Positions 2,779 through 64,000 of a DNA stretch of 64,000 nt are shown piece by piece. The stretch is from Clostridia bacterium. GTDB taxonomy: Bacteria; Bacillota; Clostridia; Oscillospirales; CAG-272. Below the pieces are notes generated by a model. It was not told the DNA's origin. It saw nothing but the letters and a program-made list of their open reading frames with translations, and made no database searches. Numbering within the stretch: the stretch's first letter is position 1; every line of letters begins with the position of its first letter. A program made the position numbers and the translations under genes. The stretch covers positions 10,035-74,034 of the forward strand of contig JAFVQU010000011.1 of the NCBI GenBank assembly GCA_017504625.1. Reading direction: 5' to 3'.

Positions 2779-2793
2779 CATTTGGAGGATATG

Positions 2794-5700: not shown

Positions 5701-5958
5701 GTCGGCGGTCTTATCGGCTTTGCTGAAGGTACAAAGTGTACGTGGAATGCAGGATATAGCTCTGCCGTCGCATCAATTAAAATCATCGAATGTACAAACG
5801 AGGCAAACGTGACGGGCGCTGACTTTGTTGGCGGTTTGGTCGGTAGCTGTGGCTTGTATGTTATGAGTGAAGAGGTCATCTGGGGCACCAACACGAACTA
5901 CGGCAATGTAACAGGCACGGGCGAGCATTGCGGTGAACGCTACGGCTCAATGGGCTGA
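2794..5958 (+). CDS. GLUG-repeat surface lipoprotein (several Big_2-like domains + three ~230-aa super-repeats)
   Basis: GGAGG at 2784-2788 and ATG at 2791/2794. Signal peptide with lipobox (LSLIVVGLVAC). Big_2-like segments. Conserved entry module PIENFTGTLYGNGFTIKGLNI. YVGGIAGY repeats. Tail YGSMG-stop. Confidence 0.9.
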   Translation: MKIKRLIYLLLILSLIVVGLVACEESKYNFIVLTPKFQIYTDDSVTIPNVSYELSLEDVNTGVYVDQSRVTYSLYGDNDVNATLNGNRISATGIGEVVVKATYTHEGTEYTTYTDVKFVELVPKFSVVGELSVGTPVEFYVMSECGQYTVPLDFSNISIVSGNATVEQAQDSYGNVYYVITARSAGEVTVSADITYKGLDFTCEETFSFTKKPFTLSTESNEFFVGYDLKLVPTLDLEGFDPSRVVYTVKSGNATINGANLRSTMAGDVVVYATYEDNGEVYQSDDCVISFDYREGTIMDAESLLAIANNSGEFYIGSDIDLSGIESWTPIENFTGTLYGNGFTIKGLNIKARSLEENKGLFATLGGTVENLKIEGTLTCRGEAQKLGLLCGTNNGTIRNVTVSGSVEAPYSDYVGGIAGYSNNSNITGCTTNVTVNAREYVGGNSGFVMATRNGSIVIADNVNHGAIIGKSRVGGLYGMLDILDGENTETIIVISNKNYGEVTGSKNYVGGIVGFAEGTKYTWNAGYRSATAYLKITDCTNEANVAGVDYIGGIVGNAEAYVSEISFCTNTGDVSGNSYVGGYAGRAVGTTMQVLTNNITVTGKSYVGGIAGFAGLIDTCTNNGDVKISGFIVQGGEEKISYAGGIAGYVTGATNCINNSDIDASAGGDYIGGIAGFIMATRSSSNIIENNQNHGNIIGTGYVGGLIGKFDIDSGENNETLILTLNVNDGQITGSKNYVGGLIGYVDGTRYTWNAGYSSATAYVKILDCTNEADVIGADYVGGILGGSGLYLSEISYCSSIGDISGNNYVGGYAGEADGTTINELINNNTITGRSYVGGIAGYAGKCYSCENNGTIVNKSYAIVNNTQAISYIGGIAGYATAAEECVNNVNIDVSTGGDYVGGIVGFLMAERSSANVVRNNKNHGNIIGAGYVGGLIGMFDIKEGQNNETLEIASNTNDGDVTGSKNYVGGLIGFAEGTKCTWNAGYSSAVASIKIIECTNEANVTGADFVGGLVGSCGLYVMSEEVIWGTNTNYGNVTGTGEHCGERYGSMG

Positions 5959-5972
5959 TCTCGGAGGACGTT

Positions 5973-18902: not shown

Positions 18903-19643
18903 TCAGTTACCTCCAAGCCAAGCGGTAAAGGGAATTGCAGAAGCCATACCGATGATAAGGCTGACGGGGAGCGCGTAATCGGTAAGCCAACGGATCTTCG
19001 ACTTTGTCGCAATAGTTCCGCAGACCGCCATAACTATAGCGGATGTCGCCATAACGCAGACGGGAATAAAGCCCGATGCATCACCCTTAACGATATTTCC
19101 AACGTCACAGAAAACGTAGCCGAGGAATGCCGAGATCATACCAAGGAACATTGCATTGTTGAGGATCTCGCCCCATTTTTTGTCCTTCATACCGATCTTT
19201 GCCACGCCGCTATGTACCTTTTTTGTAAGGAAAGGAACGAGCACAACACCCGCCGCAATACCGATCGTCATAACCCACGCGACCGAAATAAATATGGAAG
19301 GATCGGCGATAGTGTTTCCAAGCTCTTGACCGACTGCCTCAAGCGCGTTACCCGCGGCAACGGTTTCGTAGGAGAGCGATCCAATGATCGAAAGACGAAG
19401 CCATGGGAGAGCAAGACCAAGGCTCTTGGAGAGCGCGATAACGCCTATAAGTATTGCAACCGCGGGCGCTATAGTGAAAATTGCCGCAGATGCGATGGTT
19501 TTTTTGATAGTCGAGCCTGCAATGCCGAGCTGCTTGGCTCTTTTTACTGCTTTTACGAGAAAGAAAACCGACTGCGCAAGCACGAGCGCGATTATCGCGC
19601 CCACGATTACGAACAAAATCGGACTGTTTACACTAAATTCCAT
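18903..19643 (-). CDS. multi-pass membrane protein (resembles the DUF5058 family from memory)
   Basis: ATG at 19643 (MEFSVNSPILFVIVG...) overlaps the PAP2 stop as ATGA. Hydrophobic throughout. Confidence 0.7.
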   Translation of the reverse strand: MEFSVNSPILFVIVGAIIALVLAQSVFFLVKAVKRAKQLGIAGSTIKKTIASAAIFTIAPAVAILIGVIALSKSLGLALPWLRLSIIGSLSYETVAAGNALEAVGQELGNTIADPSIFISVAWVMTIGIAAGVVLVPFLTKKVHSGVAKIGMKDKKWGEILNNAMFLGMISAFLGYVFCDVGNIVKGDASGFIPVCVMATSAIVMAVCGTIATKSKIRWLTDYALPVSLIIGMASAIPFTAWLGGN

Positions 19644-20572
19644 CAGATATTTCCTTTGTCCTGTCCTAATTTTGCAAACCACTTAAAAGTCATAGGCCAG
19701 AGCGCGCCGCCAGCAACTACCATAAGGAAGTAGCGAATGCATCTTGCCACGGTATTTTCGTCAAATATCGCGCCCAGCGGAGCCTTAAGACCCTCCTTAA
19801 CGAGAAGAACGATAAGCAGTCCGCCGCCAGCCTTGATAAGCTGTGCCCACCATACCGCCTTGGTGTCAAATTTTGTCCACTTGAGGTCAACGGTATATAC
19901 CACAAGAAAGCCGAACGCGCAACCGAGCAAGGTGTATCCGTTCTTTATTGCGGATTCAAGATTGTGAGGATCAGCGTCAGCAGGGAACTGCCAGAGATTG
20001 ATAAAGATGGTATACGCGATCATGATCGCCGTCATTGAAAATAGGAAGGCGTACATAACCTTAGGCGACTTTTCCGCGCGCTTGAATACGGGGTGGAGCG
20101 CAAAAATGAGTATTGCGGCAACTACGATTGAAACACCGACGTCAGCGGGTGTGTGAACGCCGAGATACATTCTCGACAGGGGTACAAGCACGCAAAGAAC
20201 GATTCCGATGATGCGCATGATATTATTTTTATTCCATCTTGCGATACCGCCGAAAAGACCTACGGAGGTCTGAGTGTGACCGCTTGGGAAGGAATATCCC
20301 GTAGCAGCCTCACGCGCCGACTCGACGATAGTGAAGTTAGGATCTTTTACCCACGGACGAGGTATTCTGAAGCACATTTTAAGGAATTGGTTTATCATAG
20401 TACCGACAAAACCGGTTGAGAGAAGATAATATCCCTCGTATTTGTTGACGCACCAGAAGAAGACCATTCCGATCACCATAAAGAGCGTTTCCTCGCCGAA
20501 AAGCGTAATAAACGAGAAAACCGCGTCAAGCACGGGGTTTCTTAGTCCCTCAAGAAAATAAAGAAATGACAT
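19643..20572 (-). CDS. PAP2-family lipid phosphatase with extra C-terminal TM segments
   Basis: Three PAP2 signature motifs: KMCFRIPRP, SFPSGHT, SRMYLGVHTPADV. About 110 additional hydrophobic residues follow the catalytic core. Confidence 0.88.
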   Translation of the reverse strand: MSFLYFLEGLRNPVLDAVFSFITLFGEETLFMVIGMVFFWCVNKYEGYYLLSTGFVGTMINQFLKMCFRIPRPWVKDPNFTIVESAREAATGYSFPSGHTQTSVGLFGGIARWNKNNIMRIIGIVLCVLVPLSRMYLGVHTPADVGVSIVVAAILIFALHPVFKRAEKSPKVMYAFLFSMTAIMIAYTIFINLWQFPADADPHNLESAIKNGYTLLGCAFGFLVVYTVDLKWTKFDTKAVWWAQLIKAGGGLLIVLLVKEGLKAPLGAIFDENTVARCIRYFLMVVAGGALWPMTFKWFAKLGQDKGNI

Positions 20573-20764: not shown

Positions 20765-21586
20765 ATGGGATTTGTTGATATGATAAGTAATTTTATGCAA
20801 ATGACGTCATGGGGAATGGAAAAGCCGAAGGCGTATGGCCTTTTCCACCTTAGCTTTATGCTTATCGGCTTTGCGCTCTGCGGATTTTTGGCATGGAGAT
20901 TGCGCCGTGTGAACGAGAAGGCAAACCGTGCGATATTGCTTACCTCGGGTATTTTTTTGCTTATATGCGAGCTTTACAAGCAGCTTTTCTATACCTTTGT
21001 CGTAAACCCCGGTGAGGGATATACCTGGTGGATATTCCCGTTCCAGCTTTGCAGTATTCCTATGTATTTCTGTATAATAATCCCTTTGCTCAGAAAGGGA
21101 AAGCTTCGCCGCTCGCTCGCCAATTTCGTCGTGGCGTATAATCTGCTTGGCGGCGCGATAGCTTTTCTTGAGCCGTCGGGACTTTTCCACGAATATTGGA
21201 CGCTTACGCTTCACGCGCTTGTCTGGCATATGATGCTTGTTTTCGTTGGACTTTACGTAGGCTTTTCGGGACAGGGATGCTCGGAAAAGCGCGACTATAA
21301 GTCTGCGACTCTTACCTTCCTATCACTCTGCTGCGTTGCCTTTGCGATAAACTGCATTTTTATGAAGGCATCGGAAAACACTATTAATATGTTTTTTATC
21401 GGCCCCCGCGTATCCTCGCTTATCATCGTCAAGCAGATAGGAGAGGCTTTCGGTTGGTACGTCGGCACTCTGTGCTATATTCCCGCGGTCTGCCTTGGCG
21501 CGTTTGTCGTATATAAGATATTCTACCGCATCAATAATAAAAAGAAGGCACAAGCACCCGTGATCCGCGAAAAACAGCTTGTATAA
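20765..21586 (+). CDS. YwaF/TIGR02206 (TMEM164-like) membrane protein
   Basis: Multi-pass protein with GLFHLSFML..., FPFQLCSIPMY. A paralog-like gene lies at 55067-55774. Start codon uncertain. Confidence 0.6.
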   Translation: MGFVDMISNFMQMTSWGMEKPKAYGLFHLSFMLIGFALCGFLAWRLRRVNEKANRAILLTSGIFLLICELYKQLFYTFVVNPGEGYTWWIFPFQLCSIPMYFCIIIPLLRKGKLRRSLANFVVAYNLLGGAIAFLEPSGLFHEYWTLTLHALVWHMMLVFVGLYVGFSGQGCSEKRDYKSATLTFLSLCCVAFAINCIFMKASENTINMFFIGPRVSSLIIVKQIGEAFGWYVGTLCYIPAVCLGAFVVYKIFYRINNKKKAQAPVIREKQLV

Positions 21587-21600
21587 ATACAGATAATCTA

Positions 21601-21629
21601 TTGACTTTGCGCGTGTAAAGTGCTATACT
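21601..21629 (+). promoter_or_regulatory. SigA-type promoter upstream of the phosphonate operon leader
   Basis: TTGACT, 17-nt spacer, TATACT. Confidence 0.65.
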
Positions 21630-21635
21630 TAAACT

Positions 21636-21788
21636 GTTCAAAGAGCTTTTTGCAAAAGCACAATCTACGTGCTATGACGAGCCGTTAGGTTGACAGAGCG
21701 CCAAAAAGCGACACTGTAGAGCGGATGTATGTCCACTCTATCAAGGAATAAATTTCAAAAGCCGAGAGCAACCCCTCGGCTTTATTTT
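21636..21788 (+). promoter_or_regulatory. ~150-nt structured leader or small RNA ending in an intrinsic terminator (candidate riboswitch/attenuator)
   Basis: Hairpins gctttt-tgc-aaaagc and tagagcgga-tgtatg-tccactcta. Terminator aaagccgag-agcaaccc-ctcggcttt + atttt at 21758-21788, 20 nt before the operon start codon. Confidence 0.5.
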
Positions 21789-21808
21789 AAACGTAAGAGG
21801 AAAAACAA

Positions 21809-23818
21809 ATGAAGGCACTTATACTCAATTCGGGACTTGGACACAGAATGGGAGTTCTCACAAGCGAGCATCCCAAGTGTATGACCGAAATAACGAATAA
21901 AGATACGATACTTTCGCGTCAGCTCCGTTTAATTGCGGAGGCAGGCATTAGTGAGGTCGTAATGACCACGGGATATTATAACGAGATTCTCGTAAATTAT
22001 TGCCGCTCGCTCGGTCTTCCGTTGCATTTCACGTTTGTAAATAATCCCTTGTACGACAAGACGAACTATATTTATTCGATCTACTGCGCAAGGGAATATC
22101 TTTACGGCGACGATATCGTGCTTATGCACGGTGACCTCGTTTTCGAGGAGCAGGTATTTGAGCGCGTTATCAAGAGCGGGGAAAGCTGTATGACGGTAAG
22201 CTCCACTCTGTCGTTGCCCGAAAAGGATTTCAAGGCGGTGATACACGGCGGCAGAATAGAGAAGGTTGGAATTGAATTCTTTACCGACGCTATGGCGGCA
22301 CAGCCTCTCTATAAAATAAATGCCGATGATTTCAAGGTATGGCTTGACGAGATCGTGGCTTTTTGCGAGAGCGACAACAGAAAATGTTATGCCGAGAACG
22401 CCTTTAATAAGGTTTCGGATAAATGCAAGATATTTCCTCTTGATTTTGCCGACTCGCTTTGCGCCGAGATAGACACGCCTGAGGATCTTGCTGTTGTATC
22501 CGAAAAAGTGCGTGAGCTTGAGTCAAGAACCGTATATATGTGTTTCTCGACCGATATGCTTCATAGCGGACATATCGCTATCATCAAAAAGGCGGCAAAG
22601 CTTGGTAAGCTTACCATAGGCGTACTGTCCGACGAGGCGATCGCAAGCTATAAGCGTTTCCCACTTATGCCTTACGAGGAAAGAAGATCGCTTTTTGAGA
22701 ATATAAACGGCGTCGCAGGGGTAGTTGAGCAAAAGGAGCTTAGCTACGCGGCGAATATCCGCAAGCTTCGTCCTACCTTTGTTGTTCACGGCGACGATTG
22801 GCGCGAGGGCTTCCAGAAGCCTATTCGCGACGAGGTGGTTGAGGTTCTTGCCGAATACGGCGGAAAGCTTGTTGAATATCCTTATTCCAACGATGAAAAA
22901 TACAAGGAGCTTGAAAAAGCCTCGCGTGCGCAGATGTCGACACCCGATTTCCGCCGTTCAAGACTTTCAAAGCTTATCGCGATGAAGGGCTGCGTTTCGG
23001 CACTTGAGGCGCACAGCGGCATTACCGGACTTATAGCAGAGAACACAAAGGTGCTTCGTGACGGCAAGACCTACCAGTTTGACGCTATGTGGATATCCAG
23101 CCTTTGCGACTCTACCGCAAAGGGTAAGCCTGATATAGAGCTTGTTGATATGACCTCGCGCTTCCGTACTATCGACGATATTATGGAGGTCACGACCAAG
23201 CCGATAATTTTTGACGGCGACACGGGCGGACTTACCGAGCATTTCGTTTACACCGTCAGAAGCCTTGAAAGAATGGGCGTTTCGATGGTTATAATTGAAG
23301 ATAAGACGGGACTTAAGAAAAATTCGCTCTTCGGTACCGAGGTCGCTCAGACTCAGGATAGCATTGAAAACTTCTGCGCGAAGATCGCGGCAGGTAAAGC
23401 GGCGCAGAAAACGCGAGAGTTTATGATCTGCGCGCGTATTGAGAGCCTTATACTTGAGGCGGGAATGACCGATGCGCTCACACGCGCCTTTGCGTACGTA
23501 AAAGCGGGCGCGGATGCGATAATGATACACAGCAGAAAGAAGGATCCCGCGGAGATATTTGAGTTCGTAGAGAAATTCAGAACAGAGGACAAGACTACAC
23601 CTATCGTAGTAGTTCCCACGTCCTTCAACTCTGTAACCGAGGACGAATTCAAGGAGAGAGGCGTAAACGTAGTAATATACGCAAATCAACTCACGCGCAG
23701 CGGATTTCCCGCAATGCAGAAGGTAGCGACGACGATCCTTGAAAACCGTCGCGCCAAGGAAGCAGACGATATGTGTATGTCAATTAAGGAGATAATCACA
23801 CTCATTCCGGAGGAATAA
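21809..23818 (+). CDS. pepM: tri-domain fusion: LicC/PntC-like NTP-transferase + TagD/Fom1-type cytidylyltransferase (HxGH) + phosphoenolpyruvate mutase
   Basis: aa 1-235: MKALILNSGLGHRMG (G-rich NTP-transferase loop). aa ~243-375: CFSTDMLHSGHIAIIKKA...VVHGDDW. aa ~385-669: EAHSGITGLIAE, FDGDTGG, IIEDKTGLKKNS (PepM EDKxxxxxNS motif). Confidence 0.85.
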   Translation: MKALILNSGLGHRMGVLTSEHPKCMTEITNKDTILSRQLRLIAEAGISEVVMTTGYYNEILVNYCRSLGLPLHFTFVNNPLYDKTNYIYSIYCAREYLYGDDIVLMHGDLVFEEQVFERVIKSGESCMTVSSTLSLPEKDFKAVIHGGRIEKVGIEFFTDAMAAQPLYKINADDFKVWLDEIVAFCESDNRKCYAENAFNKVSDKCKIFPLDFADSLCAEIDTPEDLAVVSEKVRELESRTVYMCFSTDMLHSGHIAIIKKAAKLGKLTIGVLSDEAIASYKRFPLMPYEERRSLFENINGVAGVVEQKELSYAANIRKLRPTFVVHGDDWREGFQKPIRDEVVEVLAEYGGKLVEYPYSNDEKYKELEKASRAQMSTPDFRRSRLSKLIAMKGCVSALEAHSGITGLIAENTKVLRDGKTYQFDAMWISSLCDSTAKGKPDIELVDMTSRFRTIDDIMEVTTKPIIFDGDTGGLTEHFVYTVRSLERMGVSMVIIEDKTGLKKNSLFGTEVAQTQDSIENFCAKIAAGKAAQKTREFMICARIESLILEAGMTDALTRAFAYVKAGADAIMIHSRKKDPAEIFEFVEKFRTEDKTTPIVVVPTSFNSVTEDEFKERGVNVVIYANQLTRSGFPAMQKVATTILENRRAKEADDMCMSIKEIITLIPEE

Positions 23819-23820
23819 CA

Positions 23821-24936
23821 GTGAGTCAGAGAATAGTAAACGGCGTTAAGTCGTACGATGAAATAGGCAAGATAATAAGGGAATACGGAGCGGAGAAATT
23901 TATGCTCGTATGCGGCGGCTCGCTTTCGCGCCTTGAGATTGGTAAATACCTTATGGGGCTTGATATCGAGCATATCGTGTTCAGCGATTTTTCGCCCAAC
24001 CCGAATTATGAGGATATCGTTCCTGCGGTTGAGCTTTTTAAACGCGAGGGCTGTGACCTTATAGTCGCGGCAGGCGGCGGAAGCGCGATTGACGTAGCCA
24101 AGTGCATAAAGCTTTACGCGCCGCTTGATCCTACGAAGAACTATCTTGAGCAAGAGGCAAATGCAAGCGACATCCCGCTTGTAGCAATTCCTACGACTGC
24201 CGGAACGGGAAGTGAATCGACGAGATATTCGGTCATCTATTACAAGGGCGAAAAGCAGTCGGTGCATCACGCATCAATAGTTCCCGACGTGGCAATACTT
24301 TTGCCCGAGGTACTCGCGACTCTGCCGATATATCAGAAAAAATGCACTGTGCTTGACGCGCTTTGCCAGGCGATCGAGTCTTATTGGTCGGTATTCTCGA
24401 CCGATGAGTCGAAAAAGCTTGCCGATGAGGCAATAAGACTTATCTGGGCGAATATAGAGGATTATATTTTCGATCCCGCGCCCTCGCACGAAACACTTGA
24501 GAAAATAATGCTCGGCTCGTGCCTTGCGGGTCAGGCGATAAATATTACCGCAACTACTGCGCCCCACGCGATGAGCTACAAGCTCACGACAACCTACGGC
24601 TTGCCGCACGGTCACTCGGTCGGCATTTCCTTACTGAGAGTTTGGAGATATATGCTCTCGCACGGTGAAAAATGCACCGATAAGCGCGGATACGACTATC
24701 TTTTGTCTGTTTTCGGCAATATTGCCGCCGCTATGTCTTGCGAAAGCGTGGAAACCGCCCTCGCGGCATACGAAAATCTCCTTTGCAAAATGGAGATTTC
24801 CGGCCCGATACCCGAAAACAAGGAAGCTGAGGTCGCGCTTTTGGCGGGAGCGGTCAACGTCGAGCGACTCGGAAACAATCCCGTCGCGCTTGACACCGCC
24901 GCGCTCGAACAACTTTACGGAGAAATATTAAGATAA
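23821..24936 (+). CDS. iron-containing (group III) alcohol dehydrogenase; by context a phosphonoacetaldehyde reductase (PhpC/FomC-like)
   Basis: GGAGG 7 nt before the GTG. GGGSAIDVAKCI, PTTAGTGSE and His-rich metal site (HAMSY..., HGHSV). It sits between pepM and ppd. Confidence 0.75.
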   Translation: MSQRIVNGVKSYDEIGKIIREYGAEKFMLVCGGSLSRLEIGKYLMGLDIEHIVFSDFSPNPNYEDIVPAVELFKREGCDLIVAAGGGSAIDVAKCIKLYAPLDPTKNYLEQEANASDIPLVAIPTTAGTGSESTRYSVIYYKGEKQSVHHASIVPDVAILLPEVLATLPIYQKKCTVLDALCQAIESYWSVFSTDESKKLADEAIRLIWANIEDYIFDPAPSHETLEKIMLGSCLAGQAINITATTAPHAMSYKLTTTYGLPHGHSVGISLLRVWRYMLSHGEKCTDKRGYDYLLSVFGNIAAAMSCESVETALAAYENLLCKMEISGPIPENKEAEVALLAGAVNVERLGNNPVALDTAALEQLYGEILR

Positions 24937-26042
24937 TGAAGCTTGATTTTTTAGATAAATACGAATATTTTACGGGCGTGCCCGACTCGCTCCTCTCACC
25001 GCTTTGCAATTATCTTTTTGATAAGTACGGCATAGGTGACAGACATATCATTGCGGCAAACGAGGGCAACGCGGTCGGACTTGCGGCAGGATATCACCTT
25101 GCAACCGGCAAAACTCCCGTCGTTTACCTGCAGAATAGCGGACTTGGAAACATAATCAATCCCGTGGCGTCGCTTCTTAACGATAAGGTCTACGGCATAC
25201 CCTGTCTATTTATAGTTGGTTGGCGCGGCGAGCCGGGCATACACGACGAGCCCCAGCATATCTATCAGGGCGAGGTCACACTCAAGCTCCTTGAGGATAT
25301 GGATATAGAGGTGTTCGTTCTTTCAAAAGACACTACCGAGGACGAGCTTTCTGTTGCGCTCACGCGCTTTGAGGATCGCTTCAAGATCGGCAAGCAGGCG
25401 GCGATAGTCGTCAAGAAGGGCGCGCTTGAGTTTGATGAAAAGATAAAGTTCACAAATGATCATGTAATGACACGCGAAAGCATAATCGAGCGCGTTACTC
25501 GCGTCACGGGCGACGATATCATCGTTTCAACCACGGGTAAGGCGTCGCGTGAGCTTTTTGAGATACGCGAGGGAGTTGACGGCGACCACAGCCGTGATTT
25601 TCTTACGGTAGGCTCGATGGGACACAGCTCGTCTATCGCGCTTGGAATTGCGCAGAGAAAGCCTGAGCGCAAAATATGGGTGCTTGACGGCGACGGCGCG
25701 GCTCTTATGCACCTCGGCGCAATGGCCACTCTTGGAGCAAATTCGCCTCGAAACGTGGTACATGTCGTGATAAATAATGCCTCGCACGAAACAGTGGGCG
25801 GACTTCCCACGGTCGCAGGTAAGATCGACCTTGTCAAAATAGCCGAGGGCTGCGGATATAGCCGTGCGGTTAGTGTTGACACTCCCGACGCGCTTGATAA
25901 AGCTCTCGCGGAGGCTAAAGTAGCAGATGAGCTTTGCTTTATCGAGGTCAAGTCCTCAATTGGCGCACGCGCCGACCTCGGCAGACCGACAACTACCGCA
26001 AAAGAGAACAAAGAGAAATTTATGGAATTTCTCGCAAAATAA
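24936..26042 (+). CDS. ppd: phosphonopyruvate decarboxylase (ThDP-dependent)
   Basis: TAATG overlap with the ADH gene. YFTGVPDSLLSPLCNY, NEGNAVGLAAGY, GDGAALMHLGAMATLG (ThDP motif), NNASHETVGG. Confidence 0.88.
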   Translation: MKLDFLDKYEYFTGVPDSLLSPLCNYLFDKYGIGDRHIIAANEGNAVGLAAGYHLATGKTPVVYLQNSGLGNIINPVASLLNDKVYGIPCLFIVGWRGEPGIHDEPQHIYQGEVTLKLLEDMDIEVFVLSKDTTEDELSVALTRFEDRFKIGKQAAIVVKKGALEFDEKIKFTNDHVMTRESIIERVTRVTGDDIIVSTTGKASRELFEIREGVDGDHSRDFLTVGSMGHSSSIALGIAQRKPERKIWVLDGDGAALMHLGAMATLGANSPRNVVHVVINNASHETVGGLPTVAGKIDLVKIAEGCGYSRAVSVDTPDALDKALAEAKVADELCFIEVKSSIGARADLGRPTTTAKENKEKFMEFLAK

Positions 26043-26080
26043 AGAAATCGGTTGGCATAATGCCAACCGATTTCTTTTTT
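26043..26080. terminator. bidirectional terminator
   Basis: agaaatcggttggca-taa-tgccaaccgatttct flanked by A/T runs. Confidence 0.85.
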
Positions 26081-26975
26081 AAAGATTAAGAAGCACCACC
26101 GAAGCCGTACCTATTGCATATCCTACGTACTGAAGTCTTGAAAGCCGTTCCTTGTAGACAAAGATAGCCAACAGGAAGCCAAGCACTATGCCTCCGCCTG
26201 AAATAGATGGGAAAAGGATAGAGGCATCGATCTTGCCCGGTGAGGAAAGCACCATAACGAGAAGATTGACTATACCGTTTGAAATACCCGCCAGCGCGGC
26301 GAGTCCTATGCAGGGAACCGTACCCACGCGGATATCCTCTTTGTTGATAAGGGCGCAAATTACAAGCACAATAAACGCGCCCGCAAGCGCAATTATCATA
26401 AATTCGTTTTTGTAAAGTGAGGTATTGCTCGCTTCGTCATAAAAAGCAACTGCCTGTATCTTTTGCACGACTGAGCACATACCGTTTCCGATAAATCCAA
26501 GAATAAGCGCAACCATCCATTTGACCGAAAACTTCTTTTCGTTGCTCCTGTCCCCTTTTTTTCTTTCAAGCACCGTTGAAATCAGGAGGAGAGATGCCGC
26601 AAGAAGTGCAAGACCTATTATTTTTGTAGTATTTAAAGGATCTCCAAGCACTATCATGCCGTAAAATGCGGGAATAATGAGCGAATATGAGGTTACAAGG
26701 AGAGTCAGTGCGAGGGGTCCCCACTTTATCGCAAGAAATACAGATATAAGAGCCGTTCCGTATGTGGCGGCGAAGGAAAGCGAGTAGGGAATGATCTCAG
26801 GCGTAAAATTGAGCTTAAATCCTGAGCTTGCAATGAAGAAAAGCATCGCGAAAAGAGCCACGATCGCTGAGAAAATAAAACCGTTGGACTTTTCAATTTT
26901 AAGATTATACTGCTTCTTTGCAATATCCTGTACGATAATGAAAATAACGATCAAAACAAGAAACAAATAATTCAT
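26079..26975 (-). CDS. DMT-superfamily (EamA-like) 10-TM transporter
   Basis: Two similar 5-TM halves; hydrophobic throughout. Confidence 0.55.
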   Translation of the reverse strand: MNYLFLVLIVIFIIVQDIAKKQYNLKIEKSNGFIFSAIVALFAMLFFIASSGFKLNFTPEIIPYSLSFAATYGTALISVFLAIKWGPLALTLLVTSYSLIIPAFYGMIVLGDPLNTTKIIGLALLAASLLLISTVLERKKGDRSNEKKFSVKWMVALILGFIGNGMCSVVQKIQAVAFYDEASNTSLYKNEFMIIALAGAFIVLVICALINKEDIRVGTVPCIGLAALAGISNGIVNLLVMVLSSPGKIDASILFPSISGGGIVLGFLLAIFVYKERLSRLQYVGYAIGTASVVLLNL

Positions 26976-27072
26976 TTTTGCCTCCGTCAGTAAAATAAAT
27001 ACAAGGGAGATTATACCACATAAGACGGAATAAGTTAACGAATATATTGATTTTTATAAGTATAATCTTAAT

Positions 27073-27936
27073 TTAACTTTTTCCTTTTATAATATGAGTT
27101 ATAACGTATATCAGAATATCCACCGCGGCGACGGTTGCGCCTACGGGAGTTTCAAGAATAATGGACAAAAGGACACCGAGAAGCGCGCCGATTGCCGCAA
27201 TTATCGGGGAGAGGAGAAGTGAGAGCTTAAAGCTCTTGCACAAGCGCATAGCCGACATAGCGGGGAATATGATGAGTGAGGAAATAAGCAGTGCGCCCGC
27301 AAGCTTCATTCCGATAACGATAACAGTGGCGGTTACGACTGCGATTGCTAAATTGTAAAGCCCCGTTTTCGTGCCCGTCGCCCTTGCGACTCTCTCATCA
27401 AGTGTCAGTGAGAAAAGCTTGTGTCTGAATATGACGGTGAGAACGATAAGTAGCGCCGTTATCGTGGCGATTATCACGATGTCGGTCGTATCAGACGCGA
27501 GAATTTCCTGTGAGCCGAAAAGCGCGGTGCATACGTCGCCGCCAAGGTTGGCTTCACCGCCGCCAACCTTCATTATAGTGTAGCCTACCGCAAGCGCACC
27601 CGCAGAAATGATAGCCACAGCCGCGTCGCCCATTATCTTCTTTCCCGAAAGTGTGAGAAGTATGACGGCCGCCAAAATCGTGACGGGGAGGGTGATCATT
27701 TCAAGATCAAGTATGCCAAGCGTTGCCGCGATCGCCGCCGCGCCAAACGCAACGTGAGAAAGTCCGTCACCAAGCAAGGAATAACGCTTCAGGACCAATA
27801 CGACACCCAGTAAAGCGGCTGAAACAGAAACCAGAACCGTTACTATAAGCGCGTTTCTGATAAATCCGTAGGATAAATACTCGCCAAGTCGCGATATAGC
27901 TTGCGCAAAATTCAAGGTTAAAATATTCAACGTCAT
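27073..27936 (-). CDS. metal (Zn/Mn) ABC transporter permease, ABC-3 family
   Basis: ZnuB/MntB-like sequence: ALLGVVLVLKRYSLLGDGLSHVAFGAAA and about 8 TM segments. Confidence 0.8.
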   Translation of the reverse strand: MTLNILTLNFAQAISRLGEYLSYGFIRNALIVTVLVSVSAALLGVVLVLKRYSLLGDGLSHVAFGAAAIAATLGILDLEMITLPVTILAAVILLTLSGKKIMGDAAVAIISAGALAVGYTIMKVGGGEANLGGDVCTALFGSQEILASDTTDIVIIATITALLIVLTVIFRHKLFSLTLDERVARATGTKTGLYNLAIAVVTATVIVIGMKLAGALLISSLIIFPAMSAMRLCKSFKLSLLLSPIIAAIGALLGVLLSIILETPVGATVAAVDILIYVITHIIKGKS

Positions 27937-28703
27937 TTTGCACCGCCCATATATCTGAATCCGCCCTCACCGAAGGGGATGTCGTCGCCGTTTTGCTTGT
28001 GGTCTGCATCAACGTATGCCTTTGCTTCGTCGAGCCTCAGATATTCGTCTACCGTACCGAAAAAGACTGAATCCTTGTTTATTCTAAGGATTTTAGTTCC
28101 GTTCTTGAGTGCGGCATCAATATCGTGAGTTACCGTCACAACCGTCATTTTGTGTCGGCGGTTGAGGTCGTGTATAAGTGAATATATATCGTACGTTGTT
28201 TTGGCGTCAAGGCTCGTTACGGGCTCGTCAAGGATAAGCATTTTTTCCGCGGCAGAGAGCGCTCTTGCAAGCGCGACTCTTTGACGCTGACCGCCCGAAA
28301 GATCGCGGTAGGGGTGACGAGCTATCGAGGTCACGCCAAGTCTTTCCATATTCTCAAAAGCTGTTTTTTTAGCGCTTTTATTAATAAAGAGACCGTTTTT
28401 AGCGCGGTTCAGACATCCCGACTCAACTACCTCGCACACAAGTGCGGGAAAATCCTTTGATACGGGATTTTGTTGCGTAAGAACACCTATCTCGCGCCTT
28501 TTGATGCCGCAAAGCTCGATCTTGCCAAGAGTCGGTCGCTTAAGGCCTAAAATGGCGTTGAGAAGAGTTGATTTTCCCGAGCCGTTTTCACCGATAATGC
28601 ACAGATAGTCGCCCTCGCATATATCAAACGAAAGGTTTTCGATTACATTTACACCGTCGTATGAAAGAGTGATACTATTTACCCTGATAAGTGTCTTTGA
28701 CAA
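27933..28703 (-). CDS. metal ABC transporter ATP-binding protein
   Basis: Walker A GENGSGKST, signature LSGGQRQR, Walker B MLILDEP. The TTG start is uncertain (see findings). Confidence 0.85.
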   Translation of the reverse strand: MSKTLIRVNSITLSYDGVNVIENLSFDICEGDYLCIIGENGSGKSTLLNAILGLKRPTLGKIELCGIKRREIGVLTQQNPVSKDFPALVCEVVESGCLNRAKNGLFINKSAKKTAFENMERLGVTSIARHPYRDLSGGQRQRVALARALSAAEKMLILDEPVTSLDAKTTYDIYSLIHDLNRRHKMTVVTVTHDIDAALKNGTKILRINKDSVFFGTVDEYLRLDEAKAYVDADHKQNGDDIPFGEGGFRYMGGAK

Positions 28704-55066: not shown

Positions 55067-55774
55067 TTATTTATTTTTCAGCTTTCTCTCTCTGATAATA
55101 AACGGCAAATGGAAAAGCGTGATTATCACCGCGCCGAGCGTAACGATATGTAAAAAGTAAACGTACCAGCCGTAGTCGAGTGTCAGAAAGGGCAAATTTT
55201 TCATCGGAGGGCGCACGAGATACATAAAGTTCGTGTTGTACTGCGAAAGCGCGCTGTTGACGTATATCATTGCCCAGACGAGTGAGAGCAGGCATATCAT
55301 ATTTCTGCCGAGAGCCTTGATGCCGAGCTTTGCATGACCGCAAATGATGAGATAGAGCGAAAACCACAAAAGTCCGGCATGGTAAACGAAGCACTGATAC
55401 GCAAGTATTTTGGTAAAATCAGTTCCGTTTGTGGGTATGAGAAGCGCGCATATGCTTCCAAGCGTTCCCATAACTGCCATAAAGTCAATTACAGTCTGCT
55501 TAGCCTTGCCTTCTTTGCCAAATGTAATAAAGAGTACGGCAAATATCATCAAACTGCAAAGGTGAAAAGGCAGTGACGTAGGCTCAAGAAACATGCCGCC
55601 CTTTTCCGATTCAGTCATGTCGCTCATTATTTTGCTTATCTCACTTACCGCACAGATGCCGCACATAATATATCCCGCAAATTTGAGCGAAAAGCTCTTC
55701 TTGCTGATAAACGTCATAAGTGCCACAAATAACGCGCACAGACCTAACCATATAAAATGCTCCGTTGTGAACAT
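55067..55774 (-). CDS. YwaF/TIGR02206 (TMEM164-like) membrane protein, second copy in the window
   Basis: GGAGG before the ATG at 55774 (MFTTEHFIWLGL...). LPFHLCSLMIF matches FPFQLCSIPMY of the 20765 gene. Confidence 0.65.
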   Translation of the reverse strand: MFTTEHFIWLGLCALFVALMTFISKKSFSLKFAGYIMCGICAVSEISKIMSDMTESEKGGMFLEPTSLPFHLCSLMIFAVLFITFGKEGKAKQTVIDFMAVMGTLGSICALLIPTNGTDFTKILAYQCFVYHAGLLWFSLYLIICGHAKLGIKALGRNMICLLSLVWAMIYVNSALSQYNTNFMYLVRPPMKNLPFLTLDYGWYVYFLHIVTLGAVIITLFHLPFIIRERKLKNK

Positions 55775-59517: not shown

Positions 59518-60648
59518 ATGGAAAAGAGAATTCAACTTTCGACACCGACAATGCACGGTGAGGAGATCACCTTTGTGCAGGAAGCATTTGATAAAAACTG
59601 GATAGCACCCTTGGGCTTTAACTGTGACAATTTTGAATTTGAGATGAGCGATTATCTTTGTCGTGGGATAGGTTCGAGATACCATTCGCTTGCGCTATCG
59701 TCGGGCACGGCGGCACTTCATCTTGCGGTCAAATTGGCGGGAGTTAAGCGCGGAGATAAGGTTTTTTGCTCGGATATGACCTTTGCGGCAACCGTAAATC
59801 CTATCTCGTACGAGGGCGCTGAACAGGTCTTTATTGACTCCGAGGAAGAAACGTGGAATATGGATCCAGCGGCTCTTGAGCGCGCGTTTGAAAAGTATCC
59901 CGATGTAAAGGTCGTTATGCTTGCACATCTCTACGGCACTCCCGCAAAGATGGACGAGATAATTGAGATCTGCGACCGCCACGGCGCAATTCTTATCGAG
60001 GATGCGGCAGAGGCACTTTCAGCTACGTATAAAGGCCGTCAGTGCGGTACGTTTGGAAAGCTAAACGCGATAAGCTTCAACGGAAATAAAATAATCACGA
60101 CCTCAGGCGGCGGTATGCTTATAACCGAGGACGAAAAGGATAGGGCGCACGCCTTCAAGCTGGCAACTCAGGCAAGAGAGCCTGCCCCCTGGTATCAGCA
60201 CGAGGAGATCGGATATAACTACCGTATGTCAAACGTTGTTGCAGGTATCGGCAGAGGACAGCTCTTGCACCTTGAGGAGCATCGTGAGCTTAAAACCAAG
60301 ATATACGAGGTATATAAAGAAGGACTTGCAGGACTTCCGATGACGATGAATCCTTATCTTGATTGCTCAAAGCCTAATTTCTGGCTCTCGTGTATGCTTA
60401 TCGACGACGATTGCGCGGTTGATCCTATGACGGTTATGGAGCATCTTGCAAAGAAGAACATTGAGGCAAGACCTATATGGAAGCCGATGCATATGCAGCC
60501 CGTATTTAAAAATTGCGACTTTATAAGCGCAAATGATCATCCTGTGAATGAAAAAATATTCACGAAGGGCCTATGCTTGCCCTCGGATATAAAAATGACC
60601 GCAGAGGAGCAGGAGTACGTAATTGAAGCGATAAAGGAATGCTTTTGA
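59518..60648 (+). CDS. DegT/DnrJ/EryC1/StrS-family PLP aminotransferase (PglE/EpsN-like sugar 4-aminotransferase)
   Basis: LSTPTMHG.E, SSGTAALHLA, SFNGNKIITTSGGGML (PLP lysine region), GYNYRMSN. Confidence 0.88.
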   Translation: MEKRIQLSTPTMHGEEITFVQEAFDKNWIAPLGFNCDNFEFEMSDYLCRGIGSRYHSLALSSGTAALHLAVKLAGVKRGDKVFCSDMTFAATVNPISYEGAEQVFIDSEEETWNMDPAALERAFEKYPDVKVVMLAHLYGTPAKMDEIIEICDRHGAILIEDAAEALSATYKGRQCGTFGKLNAISFNGNKIITTSGGGMLITEDEKDRAHAFKLATQAREPAPWYQHEEIGYNYRMSNVVAGIGRGQLLHLEEHRELKTKIYEVYKEGLAGLPMTMNPYLDCSKPNFWLSCMLIDDDCAVDPMTVMEHLAKKNIEARPIWKPMHMQPVFKNCDFISANDHPVNEKIFTKGLCLPSDIKMTAEEQEYVIEAIKECF

Positions 60649-61385
60649 GTATGGAAGAAATGGTACATAGCCTTACATCAACGTGGTGGGGAATAACTGT
60701 TCTGAGCGTAGCCGCGCTTTGCTTGATTGTTATGCTTTCGGCGGTGCTTTACAGACAGTTCTTCAAGAGATTTTACGATGTTTTACTTAGCGGAATGGCA
60801 ATAATCGTGCTCTCACCGATTTTGCTGATACTTATAGTGCTCGGTGCGATCAAAATGAGGGGTAATCCCTTTTTCACACAGCTTCGTCCGGGTAAGAACG
60901 AGAAAATATTCAAGCTTATAAAATTCCGCACCATGACATGTGAGACCGATGCCGACGGCAAGCTTTTGCCCGACGAATTGCGCCTCACACGCTACGGCAG
61001 GATACTGCGCTCGACCTCGCTTGACGAGCTTCCCGAGCTTTTTAATATCTTTGCAGGACAAATGTCGATAGTGGGGCCGCGTCCCTTGCTTGTGAGCTAT
61101 CTGCCACTTTACAATGATGAGCAGAAGCATCGCCATGACGTTCGTCCCGGTCTTACCGGACTTGCGCAGGTCAACGGACGAAACGCTATGAACTGGGAGG
61201 ATAAATTTTCCTATGACGTTGAATACGCAAGTAGCATTTCGCTTTTCGGCGATATAAGTATCGTTTTTCGCACGGTTGCTTGTGTCCTCAAGCGCGAGGG
61301 AATAAGCGGAGAGGGAAGCGCAACGATGGAGCCATTCAAGGGTAGCGCGGTTACCGAAGAAATTGACGTGAAAGAGTTGAAGTGA
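60639..61385 (+). CDS. small (PglC/WbaP-C-type) phosphoglycosyl transferase (bacterial sugar transferase family)
   Basis: One re-entrant TM. PFFTQLRPGKNEKIFKLIKFRTM, DELPELFNIF.G.MSIVGPRP, GLTGLAQVNGRN. Start is 60639 or 60651. Confidence 0.88.
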   Translation: MLLSMEEMVHSLTSTWWGITVLSVAALCLIVMLSAVLYRQFFKRFYDVLLSGMAIIVLSPILLILIVLGAIKMRGNPFFTQLRPGKNEKIFKLIKFRTMTCETDADGKLLPDELRLTRYGRILRSTSLDELPELFNIFAGQMSIVGPRPLLVSYLPLYNDEQKHRHDVRPGLTGLAQVNGRNAMNWEDKFSYDVEYASSISLFGDISIVFRTVACVLKREGISGEGSATMEPFKGSAVTEEIDVKELK

Positions 61386-61386
61386 T

Positions 61387-62004
61387 ATGAACGAGAAAGT
61401 AATTATAATCGGCGCGGGCGGACACGCGAAGGTCGTTGCCGATACAGTTAGAAAAAACGGTGACGAGGTTATTGGATTTCTTGATGATAAGTGCGATAAA
61501 CGTGGCGAGGGCTTTTGCCACTCGACTATTCTCGGAGCTGTTTCTGAATATGGTAGATTTGCCGATGAGGCGTCGTTTATAGTCGCAGTGGGTGACGGTC
61601 TTGCGAGAAAGAGGATTTCCGAGACGGTAAATGCTAAATGGTATACGGCGATTCACCCCTCTGCAATAATTGCCGACGGAGTTAAGATTGGCGAGGGCTC
61701 GTTTGTGTCTGCGGGTGCAATTGTAAATCCCGATACTGAGGTAGGTAAACATACCATAATCAATACAGGCTCTATCGTTGAGCACGATTGCAAGATCGGT
61801 GATTTTACGCATATAGCACCCTCCGCAACTGTTTGCGGCGGTACATCGGTAGGTGAACTTTGTTGGATTGGAGCGGGCGCCACTGTGATCAACGGTATAA
61901 CCGTGTGCAACGGAGTAACTGTAGGCGCGGGTGCTACGGTTGTAAAAAACGTTACAGAGCGCGGAATCTACGTTGGAGTTCCCGCAGGAAAGCTTGAAAA
62001 GTAA
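61387..62004 (+). CDS. NeuD/PglD-family hexapeptide-repeat sugar N-acetyltransferase
   Basis: N-terminal Rossmann-like IIIGAGGHAKVV, then left-handed beta-helix repeats (IGEGSFVSAGAIV..., IGDFTHIAPSATV...). Confidence 0.85.
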   Translation: MNEKVIIIGAGGHAKVVADTVRKNGDEVIGFLDDKCDKRGEGFCHSTILGAVSEYGRFADEASFIVAVGDGLARKRISETVNAKWYTAIHPSAIIADGVKIGEGSFVSAGAIVNPDTEVGKHTIINTGSIVEHDCKIGDFTHIAPSATVCGGTSVGELCWIGAGATVINGITVCNGVTVGAGATVVKNVTERGIYVGVPAGKLEK

Positions 62005-62026
62005 GTTTTAATTTAGGAGATAAGAT

Positions 62027-62866
62027 ATGCCGATAACCCTGATGTATATAACCAATGACGTTCGACTTGCAAAAATAGCGCAAGAAGCGGGAGTCGACCG
62101 AGTTTGGATAGATATGGAATATAAGGGCAAGGAAGAAAGACAGGCGGGTATGAATACCGTCAAAAGCAATCATACGGTTGAGGACGTAAAAAAGCTTCGT
62201 CCAGTGGTCACCTCGTCTTCACTTCAGGTTCGAGTAAATCCGCTCGATGAATGTTCTAAAAAGGAAATAGATGAGGTCATCGCGGCTGGAGCGGACTATG
62301 TAATGCTCCCTATGTTCAAAACGAGAGATGACGTGGAAAAATTCATCTCGCTTGTCGGCGGACGAGCTAAAACGATACTTTTGCTTGAGACTCGCGAGGC
62401 GGCAGAGAATATCGAGGAGTATATCGACATGCCCGGAATTGATGAGATACATATAGGACTGAACGACCTTCATCTTGCGTACGGCAAAACCTTTATGTTT
62501 GAGCTTATCGTTGACGGAACGGTAGAGCGACTTGCTAAAATTTTGCGTGAGCATAACGTTCGATTTGGCTTTGGTGGAATGGCACGTATAGGCTACGGTA
62601 TGCTGCCCGCTGAGAAAATACTGACACAGCACTATGCGTGGGGCTCGCAGATGGCTATCCTTTCAAGAGGCTTTTGCGATGCAAACCTCGTTTCCGACCC
62701 TGAAACCGTGCGCGATGATTTCATTGTTGGCGTACAAAAAATAAGAGCAAAAGAAAAAGAGATAGAGAGATATACTGATGCCGATTTTGCGGCAAATTAT
62801 GCCGAGATAGGTCCGATCGTATCAAGTATAGTCGAAAATATAAAGGCAAAGCGAGCAGGCAAATGA
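62027..62866 (+). CDS. HpcH/HpaI aldolase / citrate-lyase-beta family TIM-barrel protein
   Basis: Family-like layout (DRVWIDMEY..., ADYVMLPMF, LLLETREA, IHIGLNDL). Assigned by resemblance only. Confidence 0.55.
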   Translation: MPITLMYITNDVRLAKIAQEAGVDRVWIDMEYKGKEERQAGMNTVKSNHTVEDVKKLRPVVTSSSLQVRVNPLDECSKKEIDEVIAAGADYVMLPMFKTRDDVEKFISLVGGRAKTILLLETREAAENIEEYIDMPGIDEIHIGLNDLHLAYGKTFMFELIVDGTVERLAKILREHNVRFGFGGMARIGYGMLPAEKILTQHYAWGSQMAILSRGFCDANLVSDPETVRDDFIVGVQKIRAKEKEIERYTDADFAANYAEIGPIVSSIVENIKAKRAGK

Positions 62867-64000
62867 AAAAAATTTGTTTTGTAACAACAGTTTCAATTAC
62901 AATGAAAAGCTTTGTGGTTGAGACCGCAAAGCATTTACATGAACAATGCGGCTATGACGTAACACTTATATGCAGTCCAGACGAAGCTTTTGAGAAATCT
63001 CTGCCCGAATATCTGCACTTTATTCCCGTAGATATGCCACGAGGAGCAGATCTTTCGGGTTTCAAGTCTGTAAAGGTATTCCGCAAAATAATCCGCGAGC
63101 AGAGGTTTGATATGGTGCAATATTCGACACCGAATGCATCTTGCTACGCGTCGATTGCAGCAAAGCTTGAAAAGGTACCGATCCGTCTTTATTGCCAATG
63201 GGGAATAAGATACGTTGGTCTTTCGGGTGTGACGAGAACGATATTCAAGTTCCTTGAAAAGCTTGTATGCAAAAATTCAACTCATATAAGAGCGGTAAGT
63301 CGCCTTAATAAAGATTTTGCCGTTGCGGAGGGATTATATAAGGCGGATAAAGCAGTCGTTGTCGGTAACGGTGGAACTATCGGAGTAGATACGACTGTTT
63401 ACGACCTTTCAAGAAAAGATGAGTGGCGAAAGTCTGTAAGCGAGGAATACGGTCTGTCCGACGAGGACTTCGTTTTCGGATTTGCGGGCAGAATTTCAAG
63501 AGATAAGGGTTGTGCCGAGCTTCTTGAGGCTTTCTTTAAGGTAAGTGAGCGAAACAAGAGCGCAAGACTGCTTATAGTCGGTCCATACGAGGAGAATTGC
63601 GGAATAGACGCAGAGCTTATAGAACGGGCGAAGCAGAGCGACAGGGTCATTTTTACGGGTAGGATAGATAATTCCGAAATGAAAAAATATTATTCTGCTA
63701 TGGACATTCTCGTTCATCCGACATATCGCGAGGGCTTTGGAATGGTAATTCAGGAGGCGGGCGCACTTGCCGTGCCGACTATTACGACAAAAATCCCCGG
63801 AGCGAGCGAGGTTATGGAGGACGGCGTTTCTTGCCTTTTGGTCGAGCCTAAGAATACCGCATCGCTTGCAGATGCGATGCGACAGGCTATTCACTCGCAA
63901 GAGCGTGTCAAATCGCTCGGTGCTGCGGCATATGAGCGTACCAAAAAGCTTTACGACCGACCCGTGATGCTTGAATTCCAAAGAAAAGACTACGAAAAAC
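62863..64000 (+). CDS. GT4-family glycosyltransferase, 3' end outside the window
   Basis: Not in the ORF track because it runs off the window. ATGA overlap with the upstream gene. The frame is open to nt 64000. GRISRDKG, HPTYREGFGMVIQEAGALAVPTITTKIPGASEVMEDG (E-x7-E). Confidence 0.88.
   Translation, partial: MKKICFVTTVSITMKSFVVETAKHLHEQCGYDVTLICSPDEAFEKSLPEYLHFIPVDMPRGADLSGFKSVKVFRKIIREQRFDMVQYSTPNASCYASIAAKLEKVPIRLYCQWGIRYVGLSGVTRTIFKFLEKLVCKNSTHIRAVSRLNKDFAVAEGLYKADKAVVVGNGGTIGVDTTVYDLSRKDEWRKSVSEEYGLSDEDFVFGFAGRISRDKGCAELLEAFFKVSERNKSARLLIVGPYEENCGIDAELIERAKQSDRVIFTGRIDNSEMKKYYSAMDILVHPTYREGFGMVIQEAGALAVPTITTKIPGASEVMEDGVSCLLVEPKNTASLADAMRQAIHSQERVKSLGAAAYERTKKLYDRPVMLEFQRKDYEK

Follow-up and report, generated by a model that had tools for sequence, protein, structure and literature searches.

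The early fosfomycin route of Streptomyces wedmorensis leads from phosphoenolpyruvate (PEP) through phosphonopyruvate and phosphonoacetaldehyde to 2-hydroxyethylphosphonate (HEP) and then to its cytidine monophosphate conjugate, CMP-HEP. Three proteins are involved, namely Fom1, in which a cytidylyltransferase (CyTase) is fused to PEP mutase (PepM), Fom2, a phosphonopyruvate decarboxylase (Ppd), and FomC, an iron-dependent alcohol dehydrogenase (Fe-ADH). On the way to fosfomycin, the CyTase of Fom1 has been shown to condense HEP with CTP, which gives CMP-HEP (Cho, 2017, cited after PMC6697681). The same four reactions are predicted for a three-gene cassette found at positions 21,809 to 26,042 of a 64,000-nucleotide stretch of a Clostridia bacterium (Oscillospirales, CAG-272; assembly GCA_017504625.1, contig JAFVQU010000011.1, positions 10,035 to 74,034 of the forward strand). 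The whole stretch is called the window, and positions count from its first letter. The cassette encodes a 669-amino acid (aa) fusion of two nucleotidyltransferases (NTases) with PEP mutase, an Fe-ADH, and a Ppd. With a rough probability of 0.78, it is a supply cassette for CMP-HEP, from which a LicD- or TagF-like enzyme, whose gene lies elsewhere, would then put HEP on a glycan of the cell surface. It differs from the fosfomycin route in its extra LicC-like NTase domain, in having no Fom3, Fom4 or FomD, and in the partners of its relatives, which are LicD/TagF-like transferases and glycan genes; because of these partners, CMP-HEP would be the end donor here and not a transient intermediate.

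In the Pnt pathways as well, a phosphonate is activated with a nucleotide by PntC and then transferred to a surface glycan by a LicD-like enzyme. The characterized PntCs act on 2-aminoethylphosphonate (2-AEP) and sit with an AEP transaminase, whereas the cassette has an ADH in its place. A class of PEP mutase (Ppm) triple fusions has exactly the architecture of the window protein, PF12804 with PF01467 and Ppm, and comprises 42 proteins or 2.8% of Ppm (Rice et al., 2019, PMC6697681). Likewise, the clusters for HEP phosphonoglycans share with the cassette a PepM, a Ppd and a PhpC-like Fe-ADH, and place HEP on a polysaccharide; this PhpC/HEP branch makes up 8.5% of the surveyed ppm neighbourhoods (Li and Horsman, 2022, PMC8942020). 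The HEP polysaccharides noted there are from actinomycetes, for example the exopolysaccharide of Stackebrandtia nassauensis and that of Glycomyces (PMC8942020). Their products have been isolated, whereas the present cassette family belongs to gut and rumen anaerobes, has two NTases and is known from its genes.

A wider parallel exists with LicC/LicD (CDP-choline), TagD/TagF (CDP-glycerol), TarI/TarJ and Bcs1, where the logic is to reduce, cytidylylate and transfer. Of the two NTases of the cassette, one has the fold of LicC and the other that of TagD, and the recurrent transferases of its relatives are LicD and TagF-like enzymes. The reductase-cytidylyltransferase pairing in Bcs1 parallels the NTase-reductase fusions described below. 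In contrast to the LicC/LicD and TagD/TagF systems, the cassette would activate a phosphonate with its C-P bond, so that the linkage formed would be a phosphonate ester rather than a phosphodiester.

Enzymes of the cassette

Pfam and NCBIfam divide the fusion protein into NTP_transf_3 (residues 1 to about 130), CTP_transf_like (249-345) and PEP_mutase (388-644). The PEP mutase domain scores 407.4 bits with TIGR02320 against a cut-off of 319.55, and its translation holds the Ppm motif EDKxxxxxNS, which separates Ppm from the remaining proteins of the isocitrate-lyase family (PMC6697681). Likewise, the third gene product scores 460.5 bits with the Ppd model TIGR03297 against a cut-off of 312.5, and both thiamine pyrophosphate domains (PF02776 and PF02775) are found in it. 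The middle domain of the fusion stands N-terminal to PepM as in Fom1, and its residues 240-361 align to the solved HEP cytidylyltransferase domain of Fom1 (PDB 5X3D, E=3.1e-43). Its HSGH is invariant across 80 homologues.

The ADH gene is translationally coupled and lies between the PepM gene and the Ppd gene, and its product shows the Pfam domains Fe-ADH (PF00465) and ADH_Fe_C (PF25137). The exact protein has already been named phosphonoacetaldehyde reductase in NCBI (MBR2335281.1), and it is 44.8% identical to a protein of Segatella copri DSM 18205 that is annotated in the same way. The ADH of the cassette belongs to a coherent and tight subfamily, which includes the S. copri protein and has a signature of its own (K145, DALCQ, T245/246, H249, Y253, H263 and R349). 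In the stretch DALCQxIE (ADH residues 179-186, nucleotides ~24355-24378), Gln stands at the usual first His metal ligand of group III ADHs; His is retained at this position in the ADH of one related locus (L156) that has no PepM nearby. In the PhpC model of P. fungorum, HEP is clamped by Lys157, Thr256, Tyr264 and Arg349; the Tyr contacts the phosphonate, and strict conservation is reported for it (PMC13576164). The spacing of K145, T245, Y253 and R349 (100, 8 and 96) resembles that in PhpC (99, 8 and 85), an indirect comparison made by published residue numbers and not by direct alignment.

The initial annotation had derived 2-HEP from PepM, Ppd and Fe-ADH and a CMP-2-HEP donor from the fused cytidylyltransferase. 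Both proposals gain support as readings of the genes, the former from the equivalog scores and the annotation of the ADH subfamily as phosphonoacetaldehyde reductase, and the latter from the 5X3D match.

Genomic context of the cassette in related genomes

The surroundings of the cassette were compared over 85 non-redundant loci, in which ORFs were called, neighbours were clustered, and the recurrent clusters were identified by Pfam. In about 70 of 80 loci, the fusion is followed by both ADH and Ppd; the ADH precedes Ppd in 47 loci, and the order is the opposite in 22. The recurrent neighbours include LicD (34 loci by hidden Markov model, HMM), GT2 glycosyltransferases (30 loci) and members of the TagF-like CDP-glycerol glycerophosphotransferase family (~22), and further GT4 glycosyltransferases, Wzx-type flippases, epimerases and sugar aminotransferases. 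A LicD and/or TagF-like gene lies within 10 kb of the cassette in 30 of the 44 loci with full flanks, and none is there in the other 14. A transferase gene of this kind is present in 47 loci, and in 17 of these it lies at most 200 bp from the fusion gene or downstream of it. Examples of cassettes accompanied by these transferases are L004, L007, L093 and the S. copri locus L094, where the order is aepX (669 aa), aepY, phosphonoacetaldehyde reductase, a protein of the CDP-glycerol glycerophosphotransferase family, an O-antigen polymerase and a flippase. This conserved co-occurrence with glycan phosphotransferases lends support to the earlier proposal that the donor serves a surface polymer.

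The class-V (AEP) transaminase family is not among the recurrent neighbour clusters scanned in the 85 loci. Similarly, Pfam scans found no radical-SAM methyltransferase, HppE, HEPD-type oxygenase, FomD, peptide ligase, non-ribosomal peptide synthetase or ATP-grasp protein in the window, and none of these is among the recurrent neighbour families scanned in the 85 loci. The flanks of the window cassette were free in the same scans of class-V aminotransferase, radical-SAM enzyme, HEPD/HppE-type oxygenase, LicD and TagF-like genes, which agrees with the initial annotation in that no aminotransferase or antibiotic-type tailoring enzyme is present nearby.

Across the whole 64 kb, an HMM search brought up neither LicD nor TagF-like genes, so the adjacency of a Pnt-type phosphonoglycan locus is not seen here. 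The window cassette is thus one of the ‘detached’ minority, with its putative transferase elsewhere. A glycan-assembly locus begins near the right end of the window (Table 1) and continues beyond it, where it holds glycosyltransferase genes, an acyltransferase gene and finally a LicD gene, some 47 kb downstream from the end of Ppd. It was followed in L175, a locus on the same contig whose position 10001 corresponds to window position 62027; the glycan locus takes in L175 10001-20840, and the LicD at the right end is truncated. This LicD may be the acceptor-side partner of the cassette. The initial annotation had placed the transferase outside the operon, which stands for the whole window and is to be corrected only in that a candidate lies on the same contig.

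The second nucleotidyltransferase and the shuffling of modules

The LicC/PntC-type fold of the fusion is complete and extends to residue ~235. This N-domain matches LicC (1JYK) at 1e-8 and PntC (6PD1) at 1e-3; LicC and the NTases for sugar and inositol phosphates are about equally close to it. Its motifs GxGxR (LNSGLGHRMG), PK23, MHGD109 and EIDxxxDL (EID223), which correspond to the NTP loop, the catalytic Lys, the Mg-binding Asp after beta-strand 5 and the C-terminal EID motif of PntC/LicC-type enzymes, are invariant across the 80 homologues, and the mean pairwise identity among these is 70% for the N-domain, 73% for the CyTase and 85% for PepM. Judged by this identity and by the invariant motifs, the N-domain is not decaying. 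His107 of MHGD, also invariant, occupies the position of the amine-contacting Asp105 of LicC and Glu104 of Tde-PntC in a register set by motif and not by structure. In that register, the N-domain lacks the acidic amine-contacting residue two positions before the Mg-binding Asp, which would fit a non-amine substrate.

When the N-domain alone was searched against 1.84 billion representatives, the best 150 matches comprised 96 stand-alone proteins (many of ~240 aa, some of them fragments) and 47 fusions to Fe-ADH. The ADH parts of these fusions are 30-46% identical to the window ADH (~200-310 bits) and bear the same signature, whereas the best generic Fe-ADH in the PDB reaches only ~120 bits. Four of the 47 are N-domain/ADH/LicD fusions and one is an N-domain/CyTase/ADH fusion. 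Multi-domain proteins (P0195, P0188, P0259, P0243 and P0126; loci L095, L097 and L156) join the LicC-like NTase to an Fe-ADH of the phosphonoacetaldehyde reductase type. Some such proteins add one or two LicD domains or a Fom1-like CyTase, and reductase, activator and transferase then reside in one polypeptide. What is new here is that the LicC-like domain recurs in fusions with this ADH subfamily and with LicD, and that most HEP clusters contain both NTases. These Rosetta-stone fusions indicate that the LicC-like domain shares a pathway with the ADH and LicD, and on the simplest reading it would also activate the ADH product.

In 80 metagenomic loci fetched via the N-domain fusions, the modules are shuffled yet stay together, either as N-CyT-PepM / ADH / Ppd, as CyT-PepM / Ppd / N-ADH(-LicD), or as N / CyT-PepM / Ppd / ADH. 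Both NTases are present in 32 of the 46 loci with PepM, Ppd and ADH, the CyTase only in nine and the N-domain only in two. One of the latter (L170) has a complete stand-alone PepM, together with Ppd, the N-domain and the ADH, and no other NTase. A link of NTase type to transferase type was considered and set aside, as the counts are too small for any conclusion (CyTase-only loci, six TagF and three LicD; loci with both NTases, eight LicD, four TagF and two with both).

It is conceivable, though rather unlikely, that the LicC-fold/TagD-fold pair of the 32 loci is non-redundant, with two distinct donors for LicD and TagF-like enzymes, or with TagF-like enzymes building an oligo- or poly-HEP chain. 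For the latter, the free hydroxyl of CMP-HEP would be re-esterified by the TagF-like enzymes. If this were true, the surface of abundant gut and rumen bacteria would bear an analogue of teichoic acid whose backbone contains C-P bonds.

Proposed pathway and alternative explanations

From the domain identities, the operon structure and the conserved co-occurrence of the genes, we infer the substrates, the product and the acceptor as follows. The PEP mutase domain would convert PEP to phosphonopyruvate, and Ppd would decarboxylate this to phosphonoacetaldehyde, thereby pulling the unfavourable PepM equilibrium forward. The Fe-ADH would reduce phosphonoacetaldehyde to HEP, which the Fom1-like CyTase domain, probably with or alongside the LicC-like domain, would join with CTP to give CMP-HEP. 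Lastly, a LicD-family or TagF-like phosphotransferase would move HEP from CMP-HEP onto a hydroxyl of a capsule, a cell-wall polysaccharide or a teichoic-acid-like polymer, and the distant LicD is the candidate for this step in the present genome.

Several points weigh against this pathway. No NCBIfam equivalog model reaches its cut-off with the ADH. The best match is ErcA (160 vs 550 bits), and with TIGR03405, the only phosphonate-linked ADH model of NCBIfam, the protein scores 137.4 against a cut-off of 423.7 bits. That model represents the PsrA clade, to which the degradative PhpC of P. fungorum is highly similar, and enzymes of the PhpC type are described as very divergent (PMC13576164). 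The tie of the window ADH to PhpC, FomC and DhpG is one of annotation, conserved residues and context rather than of phylogeny. The HEP specificity of the CyTase is not fixed by its family alone, because PF01467/PepM fusions are found in AEP pathways as well (PMC8942020). Among 24 long metagenomic loci, four have such an ADH but neither PepM nor Ppd at a distance of up to 8 kb; either the modules are merely separable, as in the window, or the module may sometimes use another substrate. The pathway does not account for the second NTase that most HEP clusters keep. In the window there is no adjacent transferase, and the distant LicD may serve a different donor. Lastly, the chemistry of the whole cassette family is read from its genes.

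An improbable alternative is that CMP-HEP or HEP is used for a phosphonolipid head group or another membrane conjugate, possibly with the YwaF/TMEM164 and PAP2 neighbours that flank the cassette. Phosphonolipid clusters are a known class (PMC8942020), the synteny of both neighbours with the cassette is kept in a 95% relative, and one relative (L010) adjoins a 605-aa sulfatase/LtaS-like protein and Lgt. There are also no glycan genes within 30 kb of the window cassette. However, these neighbours are singletons that cluster with none in the 84 other loci, Pfam scans of the window found no CDP-alcohol phosphatidyltransferase, and the partners that do recur are LicD, TagF-like enzymes, glycosyltransferases and flippases.

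TarJ and TarI make CDP-ribitol, and Gtp1 and Gtp2 make CDP-2-glycerol. On this model, the Fe-ADH and the LicC-like domain could make a non-phosphonate CDP-alcohol, while phosphonoacetaldehyde is turned into 2-AEP by a transaminase elsewhere and activated by the PF01467 domain. Two different substrates would explain two different NTases, and the presence of PF01467/PepM fusions in AEP clusters and the nearness of the N-domain to sugar- and inositol-phosphate NTases point the same way, as do L098 and L156, where such an ADH is accompanied by NTase and/or LicD modules (in L156 also by GT8, Glf and an ABC-2 exporter) with no PepM or Ppd nearby. Against these stand the coupling of the ADH between PepM and Ppd and the co-occurrence of the three genes in most loci. 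The ADH subfamily is moreover uniform with or without PepM nearby, and its Lys/Arg/Tyr set fits a phosph(on)ate clamp; no family like the AEP transaminase is recurrent near the cassette among the clusters scanned, and L170 combines a single NTase, the N-domain, with PepM, Ppd and ADH. This division of labour, too, is improbable, and a shade more so.

It is very unlikely that the cassette is a recently transferred orphan, silent or without an acceptor system in this organism. A cross-phylum identity of ~75% indicates horizontal spread, the context differs between close relatives, and the leader contains a terminator-like hairpin; but the three ORFs are intact with promoter, ribosome-binding site and terminator, all domains are strongly conserved, and a LicD-containing glycan locus lies on the same contig. 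The 14 of 44 full-flank relatives which also have no adjacent LicD/TagF-like gene tell that separation from the transferase is common. Hardly any weight can be given to the cassette as the early part of a pathway for a diffusible phosphonate natural product (fosfomycin-, phosphinothricin- or dehydrophos-like) with late enzymes elsewhere. Fom1, Fom2 and FomC do carry out these four opening steps, and the CyTase is very close to that of Fom1, but no late tailoring enzyme is found in the window or among the recurrent neighbour families scanned in the 85 loci, and the partners of the cassette are glycan-assembly genes.

Operon layout and surroundings

The features of the cassette and its surroundings are listed in Table 1. 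The three tightly coupled ORFs lie between a promoter-like site on one side and a strong terminator on the other. The gene calls, including the start sites, are identical to the NCBI proteins MBR2335280-82 on a 155-kb contig of a Clostridia metagenome-assembled genome. At the junction of fusion and ADH, a TAA stop is followed by 2 nt and GTG, with GGAGGA as the preceding Shine-Dalgarno sequence, and ADH and Ppd overlap by 1 nt in TAATG. Directly after the Ppd stop, a perfect 14-bp stem (26044-26057 / 26061-26074) with the loop TAA is followed by T6 at 26075-26080; this terminator was found by direct reading, and a consensus scan did not pick it up. The order and the overlapping or abutting arrangement of the genes, followed by a terminator, thus hold as first annotated.

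Table 1. Positions of the cassette and of neighbouring features in the 64,000-nucleotide window
Feature	Position	Strand	Evidence
PAP2 lipid-phosphate phosphatase	19643-20572		Pfam
YwaF/TMEM164-family membrane protein, just upstream of operon, own promoter	20765-21586	+	Pfam
Sigma-70-like promoter, TTGACT / 17 nt / TATACT, TG extension	21601..21629	+	motif scan
5' leader, structured, ~125-nt insert, terminator-like hairpin	21630..21808	+	folding and alignment
Triple-fusion gene (669 aa)	21809-23818	+	ORF
Fusion domain 1, residues 1-235, LicC/PntC-like nucleotidyltransferase (PF12804/PF00483)	21809..22513	+	Pfam, structure matches, motifs
Fusion domain 2, residues 240-362, Fom1-type cytidylyltransferase (PF01467), HxGH as HSGH	22526..22894	+	PDB match
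Fusion domain 3, residues 386-669, PEP mutase, EDKTGLKKNS	22964..23818	+	TIGR02320 and motif
Group III Fe-ADH, predicted phosphonoacetaldehyde reductase (phosphonoacetaldehyde to 2-HEP), GTG start, GGAGGA ribosome-binding site	23821..24936	+	Pfam, annotation, signature
Phosphonopyruvate decarboxylase (thiamine pyrophosphate enzyme)	24936..26042	+	TIGR03297
Intrinsic terminator, bidirectional, between operon and convergent EamA-like gene	26044..26080	.	read directly in sequence
EamA-like transporter and Zn/Mn-type ABC permease/ATPase (AztB/AztA-like), between cassette and Rnf operon	26079-28703	-	
Start of glycan-assembly locus: DegT aminotransferase, Bac_transf initiating transferase, PglD-like acetyltransferase, HpcH_HpaI, GT4	59518..64000	+	Pfam

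By alignment, the -35 and -10 blocks of the promoter are kept in 95%- and 90%-identical relatives. The leader hairpin has its stem at 21758-21766 / 21775-21783, is followed by a U-rich tract and lies just 5' of the ribosome-binding site, and the 222-nt leader folds with a z-score of -3.8. Only the 95% relative shares the insert of ~125 nt with the window, while the 90% relatives have the promoter but not the insert; a second copy sought within the window was not found. A riboswitch was rejected for this leader, as no Rfam family matched, no sequence conservation was found beyond the same species or the 95% relative, and the predicted first helix finds no support in a comparison of the two sequences. 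The leader is possibly a lineage-specific attenuator.

Among the neighbours, a functional link of the YwaF/TMEM164, PAP2 and EamA-like flanks to the cassette was rejected on their failure to recur at any of the 84 other loci and on the loss of the EamA-like and Zn-type ABC genes from the 95% relative. By this absence, the EamA-like/ABC block appears as a recent insertion or deletion. A second paralogue of the YwaF/TMEM164 family is located at 55067-55816 on the minus strand. Inside the glycan locus, 62027-62866 encodes an HpcH_HpaI-family protein (aldolase or PEP/pyruvate-binding fold), and just past the window a 2-hydroxyacid dehydrogenase gene lies between glycosyltransferase genes, followed by the acyltransferase and LicD; the HpcH and 2-hydroxyacid dehydrogenase pair suggests an unusual acidic glycan substituent. 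Elsewhere in the window, three consecutive large ORFs at 136-8639 (880, 1058 and 888 aa) have no Pfam match except a GLUG motif in the third, and they probably encode proteins that are secreted or sit on the surface; for the one of 1058 aa there is no record in the gene-position index. Another ORF, at 38608-41355 on the minus strand, encodes a 915-aa protein in which Y_phosphatase3 at the C-terminus is the only match and the N-terminal ~700 residues fall in no family.

Distribution and horizontal spread

A search with the fusion protein gave more than 120 clusters at ≥79% identity, nearly all of 668-671 aa, and a scan of species-representative genomes gave at least 588 confirmed stretches that encode relatives. 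The following figures are from the best 80 of these stretches (L011-L090), in which the fusion is 74-84% identical to the window protein. Their hosts are Oscillospiraceae, Lachnospiraceae, Ruminococcus, Bacteroidales/Prevotellaceae and one metagenome-assembled genome of Sphaerochaetaceae (a spirochaete). Cultured carriers include Clostridium symbiosum ATCC 14940, Ruminococcus flavefaciens ND2009, Xylanibacter ruminicola D31d and Hominiventricola aquisgranensis, and also Segatella copri DSM 18205. The identity between Bacteroidota and Firmicutes copies (75%) equals that within Firmicutes (76%), and between one spirochaete copy and a Firmicutes copy it reaches 92%. These identities indicate that the three-gene cassette moves horizontally and repeatedly, as a unit, across phyla of gut and rumen bacteria.

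The cassette is in this sense ordinary, as it is already annotated and is widespread in hundreds of gut and rumen bacterial species. The view of the initial annotation that HEP decoration would be unusual in a Clostridia-type anaerobe does not hold, for the cassette is common in gut and rumen Clostridia and Bacteroidales, and both the triple fusion and the HEP branch have been inventoried before (PMC6697681, PMC8942020). A literature search found no paper that characterizes the triple fusion and none on a HEP-glycan of gut anaerobes.

Biological significance

For the window itself, the value of the analysis is mainly confirmatory, as its genes were correctly annotated already and their class was inventoried. 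The logic of the two NTases and the identity of the acceptor can be addressed in the culturable carriers. If the proposed pathway is true, HEP phosphonate esters would be present on the surface glycans of many anaerobes of gut and rumen, among them Segatella copri and Clostridium symbiosum. Phosphonate-ester groups resist phosphatases and phosphodiesterases, and the HEP groups could influence phage adsorption, immune recognition and gut phosphorus cycling. Such glycans would also be a source of HEP for the bacterial HEP catabolic pathways that have recently been described (PMC13576164). Since the cassette spreads from phylum to phylum as a unit, it is a portable module of surface chemistry.

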